DNA of 64,000 nucleotides from an uncultured Candidatus Saccharibacteria bacterium (GTDB lineage Bacteria; Patescibacteriota; Andersenbacteria; UBA10190), in contig CAZSUC010000001.1 of assembly GCA_964610055.1 (NCBI GenBank), positions 70,021 through 134,020 of the forward strand, written 5' to 3'. Position 1 is the stretch's first letter. Each line of letters begins with the position of its first letter. Shown piece after piece: positions 4,217-64,000 of the stretch. The notes under the pieces are model-generated. The model had not been told where the DNA came from, did not search any database, and worked only from the letters and a program-made list of their open reading frames with translations. The translations under genes were made by a program, and so were the position numbers.

Positions 4217-5899
4217 TTATTCCTCTGTTACTCTTTCAACTTCTTCTAAAGTTGTTATTTGGCTCAGAACCTTTAGGTAGCCATCTTGAGCAATTGTAGT
4301 CATCCCTCCTTGAAAAGCCGCTTCTCGTAATTGACTACTATCTGCCCCTTGTAAAATCAATTCTTCCACTCGCCCTTCAATTGGCATCACTTCAAACGCT
4401 CCTACTCGTCCTTGATACCCTGTTCCATTACAAACCGAGCATCCCTTTGCTCGTACTAATTTTACTTCTTGATCTAAAGCCTTTGGATCAAACACGTTTA
4501 CTGCCACACCTTGCATTGCATCTCGAATTCGATCCTTAATCCCTGCGTCTGCCACATACTCTTCTTGACACTCTTTGCATATTCGACGCACTAATCTTTG
4601 TGCAATGATGATATTTATCGCCGGAGCCAATACAAAAGGCTTAGCTCCCATATCTACTAATCGCGGAATTGCTCCCGGCGCATCATTGGTATGTAAAGTA
4701 GAAAACACTAAATGTCCCGTCAGTGCCGCATGAATTGCAACCTCTGCCGTTTCCTGATCTCTAATCTCGCCCACCATAATAACATCGGGATCTTGACGTA
4801 AAATTGCTCGCAACCCCTTCGCAAAAGTATAGCCAGCCCCTTCATCAATCTGAGTTTGTTCAACTCCCTTTAAGCGATACTCAATCGGGTTTTCTAAAGT
4901 AATAATCTTAATTTGTTCGTTATTAACCTCTTGTAGGAAAGAAGCCAAGCTCGTTGTCTTTCCTGAACCAGTCGGCCCTGTAACTAACACCATACCGTTA
5001 GTTAACTTTAATTGTCGCATTATAATATCGTAATCTCTCTGTTTCATCCCTAAATCTGTTATTTTAGCTGCTCGCGCTTCTCGATCTAAAATACGCATCA
5101 CTATATTTTCACCATTTCCTCCTGGCAACACCGATACTCGAATATCAAATGTTTTTTCACCAACTTTTAGCACAAAACTACCATCCTGAGGAACATCACG
5201 TACATTTAATTTCAAACGTGCCAAAACTTTAACTCGCGACAAAACTAAACTCCAAGCACTCCGCGGCACTTCAGTTATATCTTGCAACACTCCATCTATT
5301 CGATACCGCAATCGTACATTCTGCTCAGTCGCTTCTAAGTGCAAATCCGATGCCCCTATTTTCACTGCCCCTGCAACCAAAGTTGATAAAATCTCAGTTG
5401 GCGGCAATGACGCTACGTGCTGTCCTAATTCTTTCCAATTCTGCAAATCATCCTCAAATCCCCCCATTTTTTCTGTATTCACCCGTAATTCTCCGTCTGG
5501 TATCTCCGCTTCTTTTTGTTCTCGCCGATAACGCGATAAAGCAGTCGCTAAACTGCGCGGAGAAACTACATGAATTTGTGGTTCAACATTAAACTGCTTC
5601 CGCGCAATTTCCATGACCTGTCCTCGACGCGAATTAGCCGGATCAACCATTGCCACTCGCACATCCCGTCCCTGTCGATAAAATAAAACCGCCTCTTCTT
5701 TTTTTGCTATTCCTAAAGGCACATTTTCTAATATATCCGGATCAATCGGAAAAACGGTCAAATTAATATAAGGTAATTTTTCCATTTCCGCCCGATGACG
5801 CGCCAACCTTTCCTGCTGGTCGCTTGCCATATTCGACAACTGCGCCGCAATATCTTTGCGTCGCTCTCTTTCTACTTCATCCCTAATAAACTCCGACAT
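4217..5899 (-). CDS. pilB: type II/IV secretion family ATPase, PilB-like type IV pilus assembly ATPase
   Basis: Walker A GPTGSGKTT; GspE-type tetracysteine motif CKEC...CSVCNGTGYQGR; 560 aa. Confidence 0.8.
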   Translation of the reverse strand: MSEFIRDEVERERRKDIAAQLSNMASDQQERLARHRAEMEKLPYINLTVFPIDPDILENVPLGIAKKEEAVLFYRQGRDVRVAMVDPANSRRGQVMEIARKQFNVEPQIHVVSPRSLATALSRYRREQKEAEIPDGELRVNTEKMGGFEDDLQNWKELGQHVASLPPTEILSTLVAGAVKIGASDLHLEATEQNVRLRYRIDGVLQDITEVPRSAWSLVLSRVKVLARLKLNVRDVPQDGSFVLKVGEKTFDIRVSVLPGGNGENIVMRILDREARAAKITDLGMKQRDYDIIMRQLKLTNGMVLVTGPTGSGKTTSLASFLQEVNNEQIKIITLENPIEYRLKGVEQTQIDEGAGYTFAKGLRAILRQDPDVIMVGEIRDQETAEVAIHAALTGHLVFSTLHTNDAPGAIPRLVDMGAKPFVLAPAINIIIAQRLVRRICKECQEEYVADAGIKDRIRDAMQGVAVNVFDPKALDQEVKLVRAKGCSVCNGTGYQGRVGAFEVMPIEGRVEELILQGADSSQLREAAFQGGMTTIAQDGYLKVLSQITTLEEVERVTEE

Positions 5900-53515: not shown

Positions 53516-53603
53516 GGACAGGTCGCATAGCTGGTCGAGTGCGCCGCTCTCGAAAAGCGGTAGGGATGCAAGTCTCTCGTGGGTTCGAATCCCACCCTGT
53601 CCG
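53516..53603 (+). tRNA. tRNA-Ser (anticodon CGA), long variable arm
   Basis: Acceptor GGACAGG/CCTGTCC, anticodon stem CCGCT/AGCGG with loop CTCGAAA, variable arm about 18 nt, T-arm GTGGG TTCGAAT CCCAC. Confidence 0.75.
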
Positions 53604-53610
53604 CCTAAAA

Positions 53611-53644: not shown

Positions 53645-53762
<118 letters not shown>

Positions 53763-53991
53763 ATTAATAATTGCTATTATCAATACTCGAAGGTCCTAAT
53801 TTTCGAGTGAATATATTTGAAGATAACCAACTTAGTAACTAACGATAATACATCACTAGTCAAGTCAACATACGTTCATACAACTGGACCTATTAGTACG
53901 GATCGGCTCAACACATTACTGTGCTTACACCTTCCGCCTATCAACCTGGTCATCTTCCAGGGGTCTCATAATGAAACTTTATCTTAGAGTG

Positions 53992-54023
<32 letters not shown>

Positions 54024-54215
54024 ACCAGCCCGACTTAGCTACCCAGCCATGCTCCAGTAACGGAACAACTGGTACACCAGAGGTCGGTCCCTTCCGGTCC
54101 TCTCGTACTAGGAAGGACGCTCCTCAAGTTTCCACGCCTGCGACAGATAGGGTCCAACCTGTCTTGCGACGGTTTGAACCCAGCTCGCGTATCGCTTTCA
54201 TTGGCGAACAGCCAA

Positions 54216-54247
<32 letters not shown>

Positions 54248-54261
54248 GTGAGCCGACATCG

Positions 54262-54586
54262 CTGTCATTATCTTCTTGTTTCCAAAAAGCATAGACTATG
54301 CCTTCATCTCGGACAGTGCTTTAGACTGATGTGTCATAGCATCTGTTTTTTTACCGAGAGCCAGCCTTTTGCCCGCTTTTAAATCTTAATCTTCAAGCGA
54401 GCCTCCCCTTTCGGGTCAGTCGTTACGGGGCCTACATGTATGCAGGCTTCCCACGGTGTTGTCTTCTGTTCTAATGAACAGGTCAGAGTTCGCCGTTTTT
54501 AGCTGGTTTATATTTAATCTGTTTTATTTTCGAAAAGACTTTGGATCAGCACTCAAGGATCTCTCCTTGGGCACCCCGATATATTA
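54262..54586 (-). mobile_element. ORF-less group I intron (about 325 nt) in 23S between E. coli-equivalent U2500 and C2501
   Basis: Exon sequence GGCACCU|CGAUGUCGG is contiguous in E. coli 23S but here is split by 325 nt. The intron begins UAAUAUAUCGGGGUGCC; GGGUGCC can pair with the 5' exon GGCACCU (U-G at the splice site), forming P1. The intron ends in G. It contains an S-element-like GGCAUAGUCUAUGC. Confidence 0.75.
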
Positions 54587-54623
54587 AGGTGCCAAACCCC
54601 ACCGTCTATGTGGACTATTGGGT

Positions 54624-54660
<37 letters not shown>

Positions 54661-55139
54661 ATGATCTTCCGCTCTTCTACGTGAGAACGGTCGGTTCACT
54701 AAGCTCCACTTTCGTGTCTGCGCGACATGTACGTCTTGCAGTCAAGCCGGCTTATGCCTTTACACTCTAAAGCCCGATTTCCATCCGGGCTGAGCCGACC
54801 TTATAGGCTCCTCCGTTACAATTTGGGAGGAATCCGCCCCAGATAAACTACCCGCCAGGCACTGTCCGGGTGGTGGTTTCACACCACGTCGTTAGACGCG
54901 TCAAACATAAAGGGTGGTATCTCATTGTTGGCTCCGGTCCGTCCTAAGACAAACCATCATAGCCTCCCACCTATACTGAGCAACATGCTCGACGTGCCAA
55001 TACCAAGCTGTAGTGAAGCTCCACGGGGTCTTACCGTCTAGCCGCAGGGTGGCGGCATCTTTACCGACAATGCAATTTCGCCGGGTCCTTCGTTGAGACA
55101 GTTCTCCAGTCGTGACGCCATTCGTGCGGGACAGAACTT

Positions 55140-55893
55140 CATGTTCTAACCCTTTCTTTCGAAAGGCATAGACTATATTTTCATTCTCTAAAGCAAATTC
55201 AATATTTCCTGTAGATATATTTTTCTTTCCACGGAAACACTGAGCATATTGCTAGTTAGATCCAAAATTTCTCGCAATCCATCCCTTGTAAGATGGTTAC
55301 CGCGGGCAATGATTTTACATATGATTTTGAATTGTTCAAAATCGCGTTGTTTAGCAGATAAAAGTGGATACTTTTCAAAATGTGGAATTATTATCCTATT
55401 AATATCTTTGATACTACGCGTCTCATAATGAGCGGTCTTATCAGTTGATGAATAACGGATAGTGCCACATTGAAAGTAACTAAGCATAAGCTCAAGTACT
55501 TCTATTCTGTTTATCTTCTGCCCGACAGAGAAACTAGGACGTACCTCCCAGCCAACTAAGAGTTTAGGTCTCTTAACTATGGAGACGGAAAAACATCCTT
55601 CCCCATCAGTATAACCAGAGATATATGCTCTTAATTGTTGTTTGCTTTTTGAGAAGCCGGCGTCTGATAAAGATTGATGTATCATAATCTGATTCTCTAT
55701 CTCACTTTTGGCTAAGTGCTTGAGCACATTAGCGTTCAGATCAGTCGTTACGGGGTCAATCTGTTGTTGAAACAGACGACTTCCCACGGTATTACCCATG
55801 TCCATATTATAACATAATACGAACACTAGGGCTTCACCGTTATCAGCCGGATTCTTTAATTCATGGTCGCCCATGAATTCAGGCGAATTCTTC
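55140..55893 (-). mobile_element. group I intron (about 754 nt) in 23S after E. coli-equivalent U1951 (helix 69-71 region), carrying a homing endonuclease ORF
   Basis: Exon GGCAGGU|AAGUUCUGUCC matches E. coli GGGU1951|AAGUUCCGACC after removal. The 5' exon ends in U and the intron ends in G. IGS-like GCCUG occurs near the intron 5' end. An S-element-like AAAUAUAGUCUAUGCC occurs near the 3' end. Confidence 0.75.
55188..55685 (-). CDS. single-motif LAGLIDADG homing endonuclease encoded within the 23S intron
   Basis: The YISGYTDGEGCFSV LAGLIDADG motif starts about 23 aa after Met (MIHQSLSDAGF...), I-CreI-like spacing. The track ORF extends in frame upstream to a GTG at the exon boundary (55895), which is unlikely to be the real start. 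About 166 aa. Confidence 0.7.
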   Translation of the reverse strand: MIHQSLSDAGFSKSKQQLRAYISGYTDGEGCFSVSIVKRPKLLVGWEVRPSFSVGQKINRIEVLELMLSYFQCGTIRYSSTDKTAHYETRSIKDINRIIIPHFEKYPLLSAKQRDFEQFKIICKIIARGNHLTRDGLREILDLTSNMLSVSVERKIYLQEILNLL

Positions 55894-57026
55894 ACCTGCC
55901 AAGGAATTTCGCTACCATAGGACCGTTATAGTTACGGCCGGCGTTCATCGGCGCTTGGCCCCCCAGCTTGCACCAGGGGGATTAACGTTCCGACACTGGC
56001 CAGGCGTCAGCTCCTATACATACTCTTTCGAGTTCGCAGGAACCTGTGTTTTTGCTAAACAGTCGCTAGAGATCGTGCGCTGCGCCCGTCACAACCTTGC
56101 GGCTGCAACGGGAGCCCTTATTGCGAACTTACGGACGCTTTTTTGCCGAGTTCCTTAACGAAGGTTCTCCCGATCACCTTGGTACTCTTACACCAACCCA
56201 CCTGTGTCGGTTTGTGGTACGGGCGGCTAGACAGACGAATGAGTGACGCTTTTCCAGGAAGCTGCTTTCATACCGGAGGCTTGGTCTTGCGACCGCACTC
56301 TCCCGCATAACTTCGCCGTTTAAATTGGACACTCGGATTTACCTAAGTGTCCCGACTAATGTTATGCGCAGGATAAGTCATATGTCCTGTTTATTTCCGC
56401 AACTTCGTCACGCCCCTCAAACTGTCTAACCGGCGCAGGAATATCAACCTGCTGTCCATCGCCTACGCGTTTCCGCCTCGGCTTAGGCCCGGCTAACCCT
56501 GGGCTGATTTACATTGCCCAGGAAACCTTGGGTTTCCGGTGGCAGGGAATCTCACCCTGCTTATCGCTACTCATGCCACCATTCTCTCTTCCGTCCGCTC
56601 CACCGTGCCTCACAGCACGACTTCAACGCAAAGGCCATGTTCAAATAGAAATGGCCGGACGAAATGCTCGCCTACCAATCCGAACCTAATCGGTTCGGAC
56701 CCCGTGTCATCGGTACTTATCTTGAGCCCCGGTACATTATTCGGCGCAAGGTCGCTTGACGAGTGAGCTATTACGCTATCTTTAACAGATGGCTGCTTCT
56801 AAGCCAACTGCCTCGCTGTTTCAGCAACCTCACCACCTTAACCACTTAGATAAGATTCAGGGACCTTAGACTACGGTCTGGGCTGTTTCCCTTTTGAGCG
56901 CGGAGCTTAGCCCCCGCGTTCTGACTCCCGTGATTACGCCAATAGCATTCGGAGTTTGCTAGGGTCCCCCCGCTTGCGCGGGGAAGAGCCCTTGCAGCGC
57001 TCTACCACTATTGGTTACTACACGAG

Positions 57027-57062
<36 letters not shown>

Positions 57063-57442
57063 TGCCAGGTTCGATTGGAATTTCTCCGCTATCCACAAGT
57101 CATCCGATGGTATTGCACAGCCAAACGGTTCGGGCCTCCACGCAGTATTACCCGCGCTTCACCCTGCTCATGGATAGATCACCTGGTTTCGGGTCTCGTG
57201 CATGCTACTCTCTATCTAATTCTTCTCTCGTACTATCCTTGCGGACAGTCCGGAAAAGAAAAAGATAGAAACGCGCTATTAACACTCGCTTTCGCTCCGC
57301 CTACGCAATGTAATTGCTTAAGCAAAAGCAGCATACAGCGAACTCGGTGGCTCGTTCTGCAAAAAGCACGCCGTCACCCCACTTGCGTGGGGCTCCGACT
57401 CAATGTAGGTATGCGGTTTCAGGTCTATTTCATTCCCCTTCC

Positions 57443-57489
<47 letters not shown>

Positions 57490-58378
57490 ATGGTCGTATT
57501 TAGTCTTAGGAGGATCAATTGACCTGTGCTAAAAGCACAAGACAATTGATTGCATGTAGTTCTCCTTGCTTCAGACGGGATTTCACATGTCCCGCCGTAC
57601 TCAGGTTAATAGCAATCTTTTAAAACGTATCTTTCATATACGCGACTCTTACGCTCTTTGGTGGGGCATTCCAGCCGCCTTCTATTAGACAAACGTTTAT
57701 AAATGACTCGCGCTCCATAAACGCGCGAACGCTACTACCATCTACTCTCTCTTAGCAACGCTTTATGGGCTTACACTAAGAAAGTTTGGACTGTTCCCGT
57801 TTCGCTCGCCACTACTCAGGGAATATAATCACTATCTTCTTACCAGGAATTGCCTGTTCTCTTCTTACCTGTGACCTTGCGGTCTCCAGGAAAAAGAGAA
57901 CGGGATTCAAGATAGAAATAGTAATCGTTTTTTTCTTTTCCTCTGGCTACTAAGATGTTTCAGTTCGCCAGGTTCGCTCCACTTAAGCCTTGCAGCTTAA
58001 GGGTAACTTTGGGATGAACCAAAGTGGGTTTCCCCATTCGGACATCTGCGGATCAAAGGTTGCTCAGCACCTCCCCGCAGCTTATCGCAGCCGGCCGCGT
58101 CCTTCATCGCCGTCCATTGCCAAGGCATCCGCCGCATACCCTTACGGTGTATGACGTACCTAACTTGACTAGCGGTGTGTTACCGCTAAATCGCCTCTTG
58201 TTTATATATTATGTGATCGTTTTGAATTACTTTTGTCGGTTATCTTCACTATATTCAATTGGCAAAGTGCCGTCTTTTCTGTGTCTCAACCATACAAACC
58301 ACAGAAAAAAACCTTCAAGTTCTTTATCTGTGTCTTGTATGACTTAATCTGTTCGGGCCAAAAAGAAGGAGCTTCGGG

Positions 58379-58412
58379 TTTTAAAACCGCTTCCAGAGGA
58401 AGCGGTTTTAAA
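58379..58412. other. perfect palindromic hairpin in the 23S leader region
   Basis: TTTTAAAACCGCTTCC AGA GGAAGCGGTTTTAAAA (12-bp stem flanked by A/T tracts). Confidence 0.5.
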
Positions 58413-58493
58413 GGAGAGCTGGGCCCATAGGGCTCTACTCGCCGCTTCTTAGAGGTCTGCAGTAGGATAATTTAAACTGCATAATTAACAGCT

Positions 58494-58521
58494 AGTATAC
58501 TTGACCTTATAAACCTGTCAA
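58494..58521 (-). promoter_or_regulatory. near-consensus sigma70-type promoter directed toward the 23S-5S genes
   Basis: The minus strand reads TTGACA-N16-TATACT, located about 320 nt upstream of the 23S 5' end and downstream of a terminator-like hairpin. Confidence 0.5.
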
Positions 58522-58538
58522 GTGATCTTTTTTCAACG

Positions 58539-58564
58539 TTAAAACCCGGTTTCCCGGGTTTTAA
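58539..58564 (-). terminator. intrinsic terminator-like hairpin after the membrane-protein gene and before the 23S promoter
   Basis: AAAACCCGG TTT CCCGGGTTTT palindrome; on the minus strand the stem CCCGG/CCGGG is followed by TTTTAAC. Confidence 0.45.
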
Positions 58565-58616
58565 CCGACTGCTGCGCAGCCATTGCTTTTGTGTTTCCTG
58601 TCACCAGGACTCGTGT

Positions 58617-59357
58617 CTACTTACTCTTATCTAAGAAGTCAGATTCGACTTTCTGTAGCCACTTCGCCGCCATATCTTTGCCTCCTAAGCCAAAGGCTAA
58701 GCCTCCAGCTAAGGCTGTCATTGCGAATAAAGCGGTTAATAAACTGTTGATTAAAGCCTCGGCAACCTTGAGCTGAATCAAAGCAGCCATTATTGCAAAA
58801 ATAATGATTGCCCACTTGCTCACTCCTGCGATTGCACCTCCGCTTGAAAAACCGGCAGCTTTAACACTGGCATTAACTGTCTTGGAGACAAAATTTGCCA
58901 GCACTACCGCGATGATCAAGATTAAAGCAGCAACAACTACGTTCGGTACATACGCCAACACTTGGCGCAAGAAACCTGATACGTCGTCTAGCCCCAAAAT
59001 ATCCGTTGCAGCCAACAAAGTTACTGCGATCAAGAACCATTTAATTACCTCGCCAAAAAGTCGAGGAATATTAACTTTCACGTTAGCGCGCGCTGCCGCA
59101 TTCTGCAGACCGGTCAAGTTATCAAAAGCCTGGTTTACGCGTAAAACCACTAACCCCTTTTCAATTAGACGACCCACTGCAACCGCTAGGGCCCAACCTA
59201 ATGAAAAGACTATTACAGCCGCAATCAAGTCAGGCAAAAATGTTATAAATTCATTCCACAATCCAGTGAGCGAACTTATAATAGCATCCCCCCAAGCCGA
59301 CACTGATCCTGAGCCTCCTCCGCTCGCAGCTTGTATATCATAAGGCATCACGCTCAC
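58617..59357 (-). CDS. membrane protein with repeated conserved TM-helix modules (MscS-associated TM_helix-like)
   Basis: 246 aa; repeated LPDLIAAVIVFSLGWALA...GRLIEKG / VPNVVVAALILIIAVVLANFVSK pattern; located inside the 16S-23S spacer. Confidence 0.4.
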   Translation of the reverse strand: MSVMPYDIQAASGGGSGSVSAWGDAIISSLTGLWNEFITFLPDLIAAVIVFSLGWALAVAVGRLIEKGLVVLRVNQAFDNLTGLQNAAARANVKVNIPRLFGEVIKWFLIAVTLLAATDILGLDDVSGFLRQVLAYVPNVVVAALILIIAVVLANFVSKTVNASVKAAGFSSGGAIAGVSKWAIIIFAIMAALIQLKVAEALINSLLTALFAMTALAGGLAFGLGGKDMAAKWLQKVESDFLDKSK

Positions 59358-59478
59358 CTCCTCTCAAGGAAATAATGAAGGATTTAACTCTTATTGGCCT
59401 AAACATACATCTTGCTTTTTGCTCTGTCAAAAAAGCGGGTTGCTGTCTTGCGACAACAACCCGTTCAAAACCAAAACA

Positions 59479-60120
59479 CTACTGGTTTTTCTTCCGAGCC
59501 AAGAATTCAAGCCCCTTGCCTACCTCAACGTTGATGGGAATCCCCTGCTTGCACAGCGGGCAATCTGCTTCATCCCAGGCGTCGAGCGTGACATTCGCCA
59601 GTGTGAACAGCTTTGGCACGTCTGCCAAATCCGCCGCCGTCACTCCTCCACGGTTGCAGAGAGCGCCAAGGCCAACCACCTCGCCTCCAACCGCTCTTAC
59701 GGCTTCCACTACCTTCCGAGCGGAACCGCCGGTCGTGAGCACGTCCTCTACTACCAGCACGCGCCTGCCGGTAATAAGTTTGTTGTACCCGCGCCTGATG
59801 ACGAATGTATCGCCAGCTTCTGATTTCTCGGAGTAAACGGCTAACACGTCTTTCCCGGAAGAAAGGGCGTAAGCTGTCCATTGGCTCAAGACCACGCCCC
59901 CGATAGCTGGGCCACACACCACTTGCACATTGTCGTTCGCGAAATTCGCTGCGATATGGCCGCAAAGCCACTCAGGGCACCGGGGGCGCACGTAAACCGC
60001 ATCCTTGTTGACGTATGCCGTACCATGCTTGCCCGACGTATACACGATATGGTCGCCGGTAATTACCGCTCCCACTTCGTGCAAAATCCGCAACACTTCT
60101 TCTGACGTAGATCCTGACAT
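59479..60120 (-). CDS. type I phosphoribosyltransferase (orotate PRTase-like)
   Basis: PRPP-binding motif VLVVEDVLTTGGSARK; 213 aa, the size of PyrE. About 60% GC versus about 42% in flanking DNA, which is why several overlapping stop-free ORFs appear on both strands. Confidence 0.6.
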   Translation of the reverse strand: MSGSTSEEVLRILHEVGAVITGDHIVYTSGKHGTAYVNKDAVYVRPRCPEWLCGHIAANFANDNVQVVCGPAIGGVVLSQWTAYALSSGKDVLAVYSEKSEAGDTFVIRRGYNKLITGRRVLVVEDVLTTGGSARKVVEAVRAVGGEVVGLGALCNRGGVTAADLADVPKLFTLANVTLDAWDEADCPLCKQGIPINVEVGKGLEFLARKKNQ

Positions 60121-60304
60121 AGGTCACCTCTGATTCAGTGCCTGATTGAAAGTACAAAACAGCCTGACCATCAAGCTGCTCCTGCCCTTAACTTAGGTAA
60201 TCAGCCTTAAATAGTCAAAACGCCCAGCGGGTGCCGTTTGTACAAAACGGCTCTGATCCCGCTGGGCTAAATCAGCCCCCAACCACACAGTAATCTTATA
60301 TCCG

Positions 60305-60375
60305 TGGACCTGAGGAGAATCGAACTCCTATCTCCCGGATGCAAACCGGGTGCTCTGCCACTAAGCTACAGGCCC
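60305..60375 (-). tRNA. tRNA-Ala (anticodon TGC)
   Basis: Acceptor GGGCCTG/CAGGTCC (G-U), anticodon stem CCCGG/CCGGG with loop TTTGCAT, T-arm GGAGTTCGATTCTCC. Confidence 0.8.
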
Positions 60376-60423
60376 TTCTAACCGTAATCTCACTGTACTG
60401 ACCCTTTTCAGTTTGTCAAAACC

Positions 60424-60672
60424 CTAGTCCCCGCCTACTCCAAATAAAAACAAAACTCTTTGAATAAACAGATTATACAAATCAAATGCCAGCATAAAAC
60501 CGCCAAAAATCAAAAATGTCCCAAATACTTTCCATGACATCCACCGCGCATTAACCGCTCCGAATATCTCGCTTATGTCTCCAAAATTTCGCAGCATCAT
60601 ATCTGTATATCTTACGCATATATATCCAGCTGCCATAATAAGCGCTCCTAAAATAAATAGTCCAAAGCTCAT
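60424..60672 (-). CDS. small hypothetical membrane protein (82 aa, two predicted TM helices)
   Basis: Hydrophobic segments flank a short loop; no family recognised; sits between the cca gene and tRNA-Ala. Confidence 0.35.
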   Translation of the reverse strand: MSFGLFILGALIMAAGYICVRYTDMMLRNFGDISEIFGAVNARWMSWKVFGTFLIFGGFMLAFDLYNLFIQRVLFLFGVGGD

Positions 60673-60690
60673 TTCCGTATTCTAACACAC

Positions 60691-62163
60691 TTATACATGA
60701 TATTTCCCCCGAATTTCGTTTTCACGGCGCTTTTCTTCTTCTTCTTTGGCTGCTTCGCCTAATCTCTTTAATTCCTCCGGATCTTTGTCTTTGAGTTTTT
60801 CTGCTTCTTTTATTAAATATTCCCGTGTATTTTTAAGTGGATCATTTAACACTTGAGCCAATAACGCGTTTAAAATACCGCCAATTTGCGGGCTTGGTTT
60901 TAGACCTAAGTCTGTCATTAAATCTTTGCCATTAATTGCCAACTGGTTCACCGTCACTGGTTCACTCGCCGCTTTTTCTACCAGAAATTGCAGATGACGC
61001 AAACGATACGGCTCTGCTTTTGGCACCCCCGATCCTTTGCGTTCCGCAATCCGCAATTTTATTAAATCATCGAAATTTTCTTGGCCTACTCGTCGCAATA
61101 ATCGGCGCGCGCCCGCTTCTGTCACTTTGCCAATATCATAGTAAAACATATGGTGTCTTACTAAATGAGTAACTTGCTTTATAAAATCATTTGAGAATCG
61201 CAATCGCTTTAATATGTTTTCTGTCATTTTTGCGCTCACAACATCATGTCCATAAAACGTATATTCACTTCCCTTGCGTCTGCGCGTGCGTGGTTTGCCA
61301 ACATCATGCAATAACGCCGCCCACCGCACCTGCGGCACATATTCATATTGAGCCGCAAATTGCAGTGACTTTATTAAATGAGTAAAAACATCATATTTAT
61401 GGTGCAAATTTTGCTCAATCCCTACTCCTTCTGCTAACTCTGGCATAATCTCTTGAAGCAATCCTGACTGTTGCAGCATTGCTAAACCGCTTTCCGGATG
61501 ATCACTCCCAATAATTTTATTTAATTCATCTCTAATTCGTTCTTGTGAAACTACTTTTATATTCCCGCTCATCGCACACAAACTATTCCAAGTCTCTTGC
61601 TCTATTTCAAAGTCTAATTGTGTTGCTAATCGAACCGCGCGCAATAAGCGCAAAGCATCTTCTTCAAACCTTTCTTTTGGATTTCCAACCGCTCTGATTT
61701 TTTGATCATGTAAATCTTTAATGCCGCCAAAATGGTCAATAATTGCCAGGCCATCAATAATAACGCTATTCGGTTGAGGCGCTGTTTCTGTGTTGGCCGC
61801 TAATGCGTTAATTGTAAAATCTCGCCGCGACAAATCCTCGGTCAAAGAAGTCGTAAAATCAACTTTATCCGGATGCCGTTGATCGCTGTATTGTCCCTCT
61901 GTGCGATAAGTTGTAACTTCAATCTCTTTTAATGACTCATCAAGTGTGTCATTTAACACACTTACCGTTCCAAACTTATTTTTATAAAAACTCTTAGGTA
62001 AAGCTTTTTGAATTTCATCTGGAGTTGCATTAGTTGTCACGTCCCAATCATGTGGAGTTCGTCCCAATAACAAATCCCGCACGCATCCACCCACAGCGTA
62101 GGCTTCAAAGCCTGCTTTTTGTAATGTCGCGATTACTGTTTGTACTTCAACCGGAATCGTCAT
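60691..62163 (-). CDS. cca: CCA-adding tRNA nucleotidyltransferase with HD domain
   Basis: Pol-beta head GGCVRDLLLGRTPHDWDV; HD motif LLHDVGKP; 490 aa. Confidence 0.8.
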   Translation of the reverse strand: MTIPVEVQTVIATLQKAGFEAYAVGGCVRDLLLGRTPHDWDVTTNATPDEIQKALPKSFYKNKFGTVSVLNDTLDESLKEIEVTTYRTEGQYSDQRHPDKVDFTTSLTEDLSRRDFTINALAANTETAPQPNSVIIDGLAIIDHFGGIKDLHDQKIRAVGNPKERFEEDALRLLRAVRLATQLDFEIEQETWNSLCAMSGNIKVVSQERIRDELNKIIGSDHPESGLAMLQQSGLLQEIMPELAEGVGIEQNLHHKYDVFTHLIKSLQFAAQYEYVPQVRWAALLHDVGKPRTRRRKGSEYTFYGHDVVSAKMTENILKRLRFSNDFIKQVTHLVRHHMFYYDIGKVTEAGARRLLRRVGQENFDDLIKLRIAERKGSGVPKAEPYRLRHLQFLVEKAASEPVTVNQLAINGKDLMTDLGLKPSPQIGGILNALLAQVLNDPLKNTREYLIKEAEKLKDKDPEELKRLGEAAKEEEEKRRENEIRGKYHV

Positions 62164-62190
62164 ATTAACCAGTATACATCCTTCCTACAG

Positions 62191-62264
62191 TGGGCACGCC
62201 TGGGCTCGAACCAGGGACCTCTTCATTATCAGTGAAGTGCTCTAGCCAGCTGAGCTACGTGCCC
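62191..62264 (-). tRNA. tRNA-Ile (anticodon GAT)
   Basis: Acceptor GGGCACG/CGTGCCC + A, anticodon stem CTTCA/TGAAG with loop CTGATAA, T-arm CCTGGTTCGAGCCCAGG. Confidence 0.85.
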
Positions 62265-62303
62265 GTGACCCTTATTTAACCCTCTAATCTGTATTTATGC
62301 AAG

Positions 62304-62335
62304 CAAAAACCCGGGATTATCTACCCGGGTTTTGC
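62304..62335. terminator. palindromic hairpin between the 16S 3' end and tRNA-Ile (terminator or processing stem)
   Basis: CAAAAACCCGGG ATTATCTA CCCGGGTTTTG; the same A-stem-T architecture on both strands. Confidence 0.4.
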
Positions 62336-62510
62336 TATGTGAATGTATTGCTATGCGCGAGTCGCAAACAGCTTGCCTCTTCCTCGTTCCGCATATTTAA
62401 AATGGAAGGAACGATTTCCATGTATTTAGCTGTTATCCTCGAGGGACAACAGTCGACCTTCTAGGCAATCTAAACTTGTCGCCAAGTCCTAGATTGTTTG
62501 TCAAATCCCT

Positions 62511-64000
<1,490 letters not shown>

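Follow-up and report, generated by a model that had tools for sequence, protein, structure and literature searches.

The window analysed here, 64,000 nucleotides (nt) of contig CAZSUC010000001.1 (assembly GCA_964610055.1, positions 70,021 to 134,020), carries a ribosomal RNA (rRNA) locus in which two tRNA genes and four protein-coding genes lie between 16S and 23S. The order on the minus strand is 16S, hairpin, tRNA-Ile(GAT), cca, an open reading frame (ORF) for a membrane protein of 82 amino acids (aa), tRNA-Ala(TGC), a phosphoribosyltransferase (PRTase) gene, an msc-like gene, hairpin, promoter, 23S and 5S, and the 16S-23S spacer measures 4,356 bp (62513 to 58156). It is likely that an ancestral 16S-tRNA-Ile-tRNA-Ala-23S-5S operon has here become a stable, expanded and modular locus transcribed as several units. 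Separate transcription units for 16S and for 23S-5S are strongly favoured by the predicted signals, because promoters are conserved before both 23S and 16S, the whole of the 23S processing stem comes after the 23S promoter, 16S is followed by a hairpin with a T-run and the spacers of relatives hold antisense genes. The locus would be the single rRNA locus of a tiny Andersenbacteria-like genome of the Patescibacteria, or candidate phyla radiation (CPR). Its features, in the direction of transcription, are as follows.

62513-64000, minus strand: 16S rRNA gene (Rfam SSU_rRNA_bacteria, 1409 bits, model positions 18-1533)
62300-62335, minus strand: terminator-like hairpin AAAACCCGGG-loop-CCCGGGTTTTT, found by folding, about 180 nt past the 16S 3' end
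62190-62264, minus strand: tRNA-Ile(GAT) (ARAGORN and Rfam), without an encoded 3' CCA; 3' flank A then CTG
60691-62163, minus strand: cca, class II tRNA nucleotidyltransferase of the CCA-adding type, 490 aa (Pfam PF01743, PF12627, PF01966, PF13735)
60424-60672, minus strand: 82-aa hydrophobic predicted membrane protein, conserved partner of cca
60392-60419, minus strand: promoter-like TTGACA-N16-TACAGT (scan, 10/12), 16 nt upstream of tRNA-Ala
60304-60375, minus strand: tRNA-Ala(TGC) (ARAGORN and Rfam), without an encoded 3' CCA; 3' flank A then CGG
60222-60267, minus strand: long terminator-like hairpin followed by GTTTTGAC, after tRNA-Ala (fold of 60160-60303, z = -3.0)
59479-60120, minus strand: pyrE-like PRTase, 213 aa (PF00156)
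59436-59463, minus strand: intrinsic-terminator-like hairpin of 12 pairs with T6, after the PRTase gene (scan and fold)
59402-59430, minus strand: promoter-like TTGACA-N17-TATGTT (scan), 44 nt upstream of the msc-like gene
58617-59357, minus strand: msc-like membrane protein, 246 aa (PF05552 TM-helix repeats), conserved neighbour of 23S
58541-58570, minus strand: terminator-like hairpin TTAAAACCCGG-GAAA-CCGGGTTTTAA, after msc (fold, z = -4.4)
58494-58521, minus strand: 23S-5S promoter TTGACA-N16-TATACT (11/12 match)
58159-58321, minus strand: 23S leader, 5' strand of the 23S processing stem, in duplex with 53784-53869
53871-58156, minus strand: 23S rRNA gene, 4,286 nt (Rfam LSU, 2257 bits)
53784-53869, minus strand: 23S-5S spacer, 3' strand of the 23S processing stem, in duplex with the 23S leader
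53645-53761, minus strand: 5S rRNA gene (Rfam 5S, 92 bits)

The 16S-(tRNA-Ile, tRNA-Ala)-23S-5S order on one strand is that of a canonical rrn operon, and all spacer genes of the window run in the direction of the rRNAs; the 5' end of 16S (about 17 nt, with leader and promoter) lies beyond the window edge. An earlier note made from the letters of this DNA had set out the gene order, tRNAs, ORFs, hairpins and promoter positions, all of which were recovered by Rfam, ARAGORN, ORF, Pfam, fold and promoter scans. Its estimate of a spacer of about 4.3 kb with same-strand protein genes agrees with the measured length, and the genes that it read as protein-coding are genuine, with cca, the small transmembrane (TM) gene and msc conserved in relatives. 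It was silent on introns in 23S and on the extra promoter- and terminator-like sites within the spacer.

Related loci, designated by L-numbers, were taken from genome and metagenome collections and from exact-protein look-ups, and were annotated by mapping rRNAs, tRNAs and homologues of the window proteins. Eight genomes (L001 and L042-L048), which together with the window make up the nine-genome set referred to throughout, share the arrangement 16S...tRNA-Ile...cca-small TM ORF...tRNA-Ala(TGC)...msc-23S(-5S), with spacers of 9,638, 8,505, 6,981, 6,871, 3,885, 4,322, 4,850 and 6,915 bp respectively, and two short contigs (L002 and L003) hold its 16S-tRNA-Ile-...-cca portion. Constant across the nine spacers are cca (60-68% identity), a TM protein of about 83 aa (30-47%) and msc (62-68%), whose orthologues in each of the eight relatives immediately precede the 23S promoter. 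Homologues of the 82-aa protein in the same range of identity directly follow cca in L001, L002, L025, L033-35 and L042-48. Two genes had been put forward earlier as possible regular residents of the spacer: cca proved to be one, in nine genomes, and the PRTase gene did not, being found there in the window genome alone. The closest cca proteins, at 60-68% identity, are named Candidatus Andersenbacteria (Parcubacteria group, Patescibacteria). The metagenome-assembled genomes L001-L003 bear the label uncultured Candidatus Saccharibacteria bacterium, which looks unreliable, since in cca, msc and the architecture of the rRNA locus they group with proteins named Candidatus Andersenbacteria.

Ribosomal RNA genes are classic break and join points in metagenome assembly and the GC content of the PRTase gene is deviant, both of which would be expected if the contig were a chimera of 16S, protein-coding and 23S fragments. 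The chance of such an artefact is nevertheless negligible, since independent per-run assemblies give the whole span at 100% identity, eight further genomes, from separate studies and built with different assemblers, have the same architecture, and the junctions hold lineage-conserved rRNA leader and trailer elements. An identical cca protein is present on three per-run Logan contigs and on a 698,565-bp NCBI contig. The longest of the Logan contigs (L021, from SRR8925806, a single-run shotgun DNA metagenome of biogas-plant digestate) is 100% identical to window positions 62740-58032 over 4,709 bp, from 228 nt inside 16S to 125 nt inside 23S. The misassembly that the earlier note wished to see excluded thus finds no support, L021 being contiguous across the spacer and the layout shared by the eight relatives.

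The evidence for a separate 23S-5S unit begins with its promoter. Candidate promoters were scored as consensus matches out of 12 hexamer positions, and the site at 58494-58521 is the only one on either strand of the 64-kb window to reach at least 11/12. Its counterpart is conserved in all nine genomes, 290-547 nt upstream of 23S and in otherwise divergent sequence, always downstream of msc and always with a perfect TTGACA, a spacing of 16-17 and TATAnT; each genome has exactly one promoter-like site of at least 10/12 within 600 nt upstream of 23S, and in the alignments both hexamers stand out as invariant islands. A near-consensus promoter likewise lies 181-332 nt upstream of 16S in the five genomes (5/5) for which that region is available. 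A score of at least 11/12 is attained by only 19 sites in the nine loci (407 kb of strand-bases), none of them on the opposite strand: nine precede 23S, five precede 16S, four precede msc and one (in L043) precedes the orf-tRNA-Ile-cca string. The adjacent 20 kb of the window are not enriched in promoter-like sites (49, where 47.3 +/- 7.3 are expected). Upstream of the 16S promoter, L044-L048 carry a conserved string of genes, nusB-rnc-(DUF456)-smc-rpsP-KH(KhpA)-trmD-DUF212, which places the genes for RNase III and NusB, factors of rRNA processing and transcription, just upstream of the rRNA locus.

The other end of the first unit would be marked by the hairpin at 62300-62335, proposed from its fold to be a 16S terminator or attenuator. 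A strict finder places a GC-rich hairpin with a T-run about 180-280 nt after 16S in the window, L001, L045 and L046, and inspection of folds adds L043, L047, L048 and L042. Equivalents in L001 and L003 have compensatory stems (CCCGGG/CCCGGG, CCCACC/GGTGGG, CACGCC/GGCGTG). Because the hairpin is present whatever gene comes next, it belongs to the 16S unit. In the window this hairpin (62307-62332) and the one after msc (58542-58561) share the motif AAACCCGG...CCGGGTTT, which occurs nowhere else in the 64 kb and is expected there by chance zero times. The pair brackets the inserted block, one member after the 16S trailer and the other just before the 23S promoter. The equivalent hairpins of L001 do not resemble each other, and the twin hairpins of the window may reflect coincidence, duplication or gene conversion.

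The 23S transcript also appears to be equipped for its own processing. A long-range helix between the flanks of 23S, the RNase III-type processing stem of canonical rrn operons, is present by duplex prediction: leader and trailer pair at -72.2 kcal/mol, compared with -37.9 +/- 3.9 for shuffled trailers (z = -8.0). Equivalent stems in L043, L045 and L046 (z = -7.7, -10.8 and -7.3) are always downstream of the 23S promoter. In the 23S leader a GAAGCGG...CCGCTTCCTCTGGA hairpin, which is conserved, and the boxA-like motif ACTTTGACAAtTGAAT lie upstream of the stem strand; L046 and L047 have this motif in their 16S leaders too. Since the leader holds both the boxA-like element and the 5' half of the processing stem, 23S maturation would need nothing from upstream.

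The content of the relatives' spacers bears directly on whether a single precursor is required. Beyond the constant set, further genes are inserted in varying number and at several points: L001 has two ORFs of unknown function, an opposite-strand PMT-like glycosyltransferase gene and an ectoine-synthase-like cupin gene, L002 a Na/Ca exchanger gene, L003 a gene for a DsbA-like protein, L043 opposite-strand methyltransferase and epimerase genes, L042 an opposite-strand Lum_binding gene, and L048 GIY-YIG and Clp_N ORFs; in all, four relatives (L001, L042, L043 and L048) carry opposite-strand protein genes within the spacer. The tRNA-Ala gene is inverted in L045 (11697-11768; 96% identical to that of the window), and in L042 tRNA-Ile and tRNA-Ala are both inverted (1014-1088 and 5744-5816), which shows that small local inversions have taken place inside the spacer. 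These inverted tRNAs, taken with the opposite-strand protein genes of the four relatives, rule out an obligatory single precursor for the lineage. The GIY-YIG endonuclease-like ORF of L048 (8778-9086) directly follows the spacer tRNA-Ile and suggests a contribution of mobile elements to the lengthening of the spacer.

Put together, these signals outline a modular scheme. The first unit would be 16S, transcribed from a strong promoter of its own that lies beyond the window and ended or strongly attenuated at the hairpin and T-run about 180 nt downstream. The second would comprise tRNA-Ile, cca and the small TM gene, and would owe its transcription either to polymerase passing the 16S hairpin or to a weak promoter nearby. 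The start codon of cca lies 26 nt past the end of tRNA-Ile, and in the window, L002, L043, L046 and L047 these two genes are 20-27 nt apart; because 26 nt leave no room for a promoter, cca would be co-transcribed with tRNA-Ile, its mRNA presumably being released from the tRNA-Ile transcript by tRNA processing. In the window this transcript would most simply arise from read-through of the 16S hairpin; L043 has instead a strong promoter between the 16S hairpin and tRNA-Ile. The tRNA-Ala, PRTase and msc genes would each use promoter-like and/or terminator-like signals of their own, and the last unit would be 23S-5S from its near-consensus promoter. The promoter-like site before msc, at 44-64 nt upstream, recurs in six of the nine genomes (three of the sites being 12/12 matches); the one before tRNA-Ala is not clearly conserved in L001, L024 and L025. 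The inner part of the spacer is therefore predicted, probably, not to be one co-transcribed block. The earlier note had taken 16S and 23S-5S to be separate units with the mRNAs and tRNAs co-transcribed between them: the first part gains from the conserved promoters, stem, hairpin and antisense genes, and the second loses ground to the promoter- and terminator-like signals of the inner genes.

A rival reading would keep a single long 16S-to-5S precursor made from the 16S promoter, out of which tRNAs, mRNAs and 23S would all be cut, treating the hairpins as processing or stability elements and the internal TTGACA/TATACT as a secondary booster promoter. It draws on the spacer genes of the window all being on the rRNA strand, on tRNA-Ile following the 16S hairpin by about 40 nt with no good promoter between, on the boxA-like antitermination motifs and the nusB gene upstream of 16S in relatives, and on the second boxA that canonical rrn operons have in their spacer. 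We consider it improbable, since the 23S promoter matches the consensus as strongly as the 16S promoter and is kept in 9/9 genomes, the post-16S hairpin and T-run are conserved with compensatory changes regardless of the next gene, a strong terminator follows the PRTase gene, and the antisense tRNAs and protein genes in the relatives' spacers indicate a lineage not reliant on a single precursor. In canonical operons promoters lie only upstream of 16S and no terminator precedes 5S; here, by prediction, a promoter precedes 23S and hairpins follow 16S, the PRTase gene and msc.

Several observations nevertheless count against a division into separate units. In the window the interval from the 16S hairpin to tRNA-Ile yielded no convincing promoter; the sole candidate is a 10/12 match, TTCACA-N16-GATAAT, which overlaps the hairpin in the window and in L046, and in L046 the transcription start would fall at the hairpin itself. 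Some read-through from the 16S promoter is consequently needed or likely, which blurs the separation of the units, and the fully co-directional spacer of the window makes a long read-through transcript physically possible. A stem between 16S leader and trailer was not significant by RNAduplex on 200-nt flanks in L044-L048 (z 0 to -2.2), a comparison whose high background for long sequences makes this outcome no evidence against such a stem. In L025 atpA-G-D lies directly upstream of cca, so that linkage to 16S is not universal. The promoters and terminators considered here are consensus matches with conservation as their sole backing, and we know of no experimental characterisation of promoter specificity in the CPR.

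The earlier note saw in this locus an erosion of the rRNA operon, a view that does not hold, since the order is stable across at least nine genomes and only the PRTase gene is recent. In its strongest form, random and ongoing erosion would make the four genes recent accidental insertions in this genome with no conserved organisation; a genome-specific PRTase gene of outlying composition and the varying cargo among relatives (ectoine-synthase-like, Na/Ca exchanger, DsbA-like, methyltransferase/epimerase, GIY-YIG) would fit such a history. It is very unlikely for the locus as a whole, in which cca, the small TM gene and msc occupy the same positions in all nine genomes and a cca...msc neighbourhood lies beside tRNA genes in distant Patescibacteria without nearby rRNA. 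In these distant relatives, whose cca proteins are 46-50% identical, opposite-strand tRNA-His, tRNA-Lys and tRNA-Arg genes flank cca, tRNA-Pro(CGG) and tRNA-Ala(CGC) follow it, and an msc homologue lies 2-3 kb downstream with no rRNA within 10 kb. Because it is found there, the cca-tRNA-msc neighbourhood predates its position between rRNA genes, and the embedding of cca in tRNA clusters, as read from these gene orders, extends well beyond the clade of the window. The core of cca, small TM and msc genes is old in the clade, with the PRTase gene as the only recent addition.

The loci with this distant arrangement (L005-L010, L016, L017, L026-L032, L036 and L040) have tRNA-His, tRNA-Lys(CTT) and tRNA-Arg(TCG) facing cca-tRNA-Pro(CGG)-tRNA-Ala(CGC), and downstream of these genes for a CDP-alcohol transferase, PHP, CarS-like and msc-like proteins, DAK2/DegV and a thiolase. 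In L003 (1-3347) the order is 16S, tRNA-Ile-Phe-Gly-Lys-Val, cca (53% identical), a DsbA-like gene and tRNA-Ala(CGC), the last with the anticodon found after cca in distant CPR as opposed to the canonical spacer TGC; it is a possible intermediate arrangement.

The PRTase gene differs from the core in both distribution and composition. It has no counterpart in any related spacer, and its GC content of 0.567 (0.64 at third codon positions) compares with 0.411 +/- 0.029 and a maximum of 0.488 for equal-sized windows elsewhere, a deviation of more than 5 standard deviations. For these two reasons it reads as recently acquired, high-GC, genome-specific cargo. Its nearest homologues (65-70% identity) come from other CPR lineages, where they adjoin pyrF; those of 69-70% identity adjoin orotidine monophosphate (OMP) decarboxylase in other CPR. 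The 64-kb window has no pyrF, and the PRTase gene looks like a salvage gene that was gained by horizontal transfer and stands as an orphan. An origin outside the CPR was considered and rejected, the best homologues (65-70% identity) being in CPR lineages, as was transfer of the cca...pyrE neighbourhood of L051 as a block, its cca being only 34% identical and its context different. The best NCBIfam model for the protein is TIGR01367 (Thermus-type PyrE), at 138.2 bits against a cutoff of 150.25.

The predicted jobs of the spacer proteins are ordinary: CCA addition, nucleotide salvage and a membrane channel-like protein. The cca product has the class II CCA-adding domain set of PolyA_pol head, RNA-binding neck/body and the HD domain known from bacterial multifunctional Cca (PF01743, 7.7e-36; PF12627; PF01966), together with tRNA_NucTran2_2 (PF13735); against NCBIfam the CCA equivalogs score highest yet stay under their cutoffs (283.6 versus 438.8 and 282.9 versus 290). 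The 82-aa protein has no family match in Pfam and NCBIfam scans. The msc-like protein, whose start is probably the ATG at 59348 (giving 243 aa), reaches 74.5 bits with the NCBIfam model 'msc', under its cutoff of 100; PF05552 is its only match at E <= 0.01, and the MscS core of pore-lining helix and beta domain (PF00924) is absent.

The 23S gene is oversized through two group-I-intron-like insertions, at 54272-54597 and about 55150-56150, for which Rfam Intron_gpI gives 41 and 24.7 bits, both under the gathering score; the larger holds a single-domain LAGLIDADG_1 homing endonuclease ORF (55188-55895, PF00961). Introns carrying LAGLIDADG genes are a documented trait of CPR rRNAs, and in the relatives 23S genes are even larger (up to 6.2 kb) and 16S genes measure 2.1-2.3 kb. 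Immediately downstream of 5S the window has tRNA-Ser(CGA) (53516-53605, plus strand), converging on 5S; the same tRNA is found shortly past 5S in L043, L045 and L046, on a strand that varies.

Against known systems the locus is both familiar and distinctive. A canonical spacer holds tRNAs and processing signals only and is typically under 1 kb; that of the window has four protein genes in 4.36 kb, about ten times the usual length of about 0.4 kb, and internal promoter and terminator signals, although it shares with a canonical operon the gene order and orientation, the same two spacer tRNAs, a 23S processing stem and a boxA-like leader motif. Brewer et al. ('Unlinked rRNA genes are widespread among Bacteria and Archaea'; bioRxiv 10.1101/705046) define rRNA genes as unlinked when the spacer exceeds 1,500 bp, and list Patescibacteria/CPR among the clades rich in this phylogenetically conserved trait. 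By the same measure, the distance between the closest 16S and 23S edges, the window with 4,356 bp and its eight relatives with 3,885-9,638 bp are all unlinked, far over 1.5 kb, and the trait is phylogenetically conserved here too. In the functional sense of the term, with 16S and 23S transcribed apart, the locus would be unlinked on indirect signs: the conserved separate promoters, the terminator-like hairpin and the antisense genes of relatives. Their survey gives distances and not spacer content, and most of its unlinked pairs are very far apart (mean about 410 kb), whereas here the genes are adjacent, ordered and on one strand, with both spacer tRNAs and a conserved intervening set. Borrelia burgdorferi, also slow-growing with a reduced genome, likewise has a single 16S, a multi-kb spacer before 23S-5S and tRNA-Ala and tRNA-Ile within it, and three independent transcripts have been shown experimentally, 16S-tRNA-Ala, tRNA-Ile and 23S-5S (PMC3037291). 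It belongs to another phylum, its 23S-5S is tandemly duplicated, its tRNAs come in another order and a cca/msc core is not reported for it; its transcripts are proven, where those of the present locus are deduced from sequence. Helicobacter pylori and Wolbachia/Rickettsia/Buchnera have split rRNA genes (PMC6582327, PMC7761764), with separate 16S and 23S-5S units, independent RNase III stems, small genomes and host-dependent lifestyles; their units lie at distant chromosomal sites, in contrast to the neighbouring units with conserved genes between them seen here. An incomplete literature search, and hence weak evidence, returned nothing specific on the rRNA arrangement of Andersenbacteria, on protein genes in CPR spacers or on spacer-resident cca. 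Because the layout is common to the relatives and Patescibacteria were already known to have unlinked rRNA genes, the split locus is a tidy example of a known phenomenon and not new as a class. The description of the locus as atypical for bacteria in the earlier note is thus apt in comparison with the textbook operon and too strong if it implies a novel class, given the unlinked genes of Patescibacteria and the case of Borrelia burgdorferi.

The presence of cca in this setting invites a functional explanation. A CCA-adding enzyme is essential where tRNA genes lack an encoded CCA. Among 63 tRNA genes, those of the window and of 15 related loci, at least 55 lack an encoded CCA and 5-8 encode it (with an ambiguity of +/-1 nt shift); because most lack it, the CCA-adding enzyme must be essential in these organisms. 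The recurrent placement of cca beside tRNA genes across Patescibacteria suggests, as a hypothesis, co-expression. We would go further with considerable reserve: there is some chance, though a small one, that the expanded spacer of Andersenbacteria is a selected 'translation-apparatus' arrangement and not a neutral relic, cca being fused transcriptionally to tRNA-Ile and expressed via read-through of a leaky 16S terminator. If so, the capacity to mature tRNA 3' ends would depend directly on the activity of the rRNA promoter, in organisms almost all of whose tRNA genes are without CCA, and the occurrence of cca in tRNA clusters across Patescibacteria would suggest a lineage-wide, undescribed strategy of tRNA-cca co-expression.

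Current understanding of rRNA operon evolution is unchanged by this locus, which provides a concrete and well-conserved example of what lies between 'unlinked' CPR rRNA genes, one in which the split came along with another promoter of the rRNA type and a 23S processing stem complete in itself. For rRNA-operon amplicon methods and for 16S-23S linkage in binning this has practical consequences, since spacers 4-10 kb long and the introns will defeat standard primers and length filters. The locus also offers a natural system for studying how 16S:23S stoichiometry may be held without co-transcription in minimal genomes.

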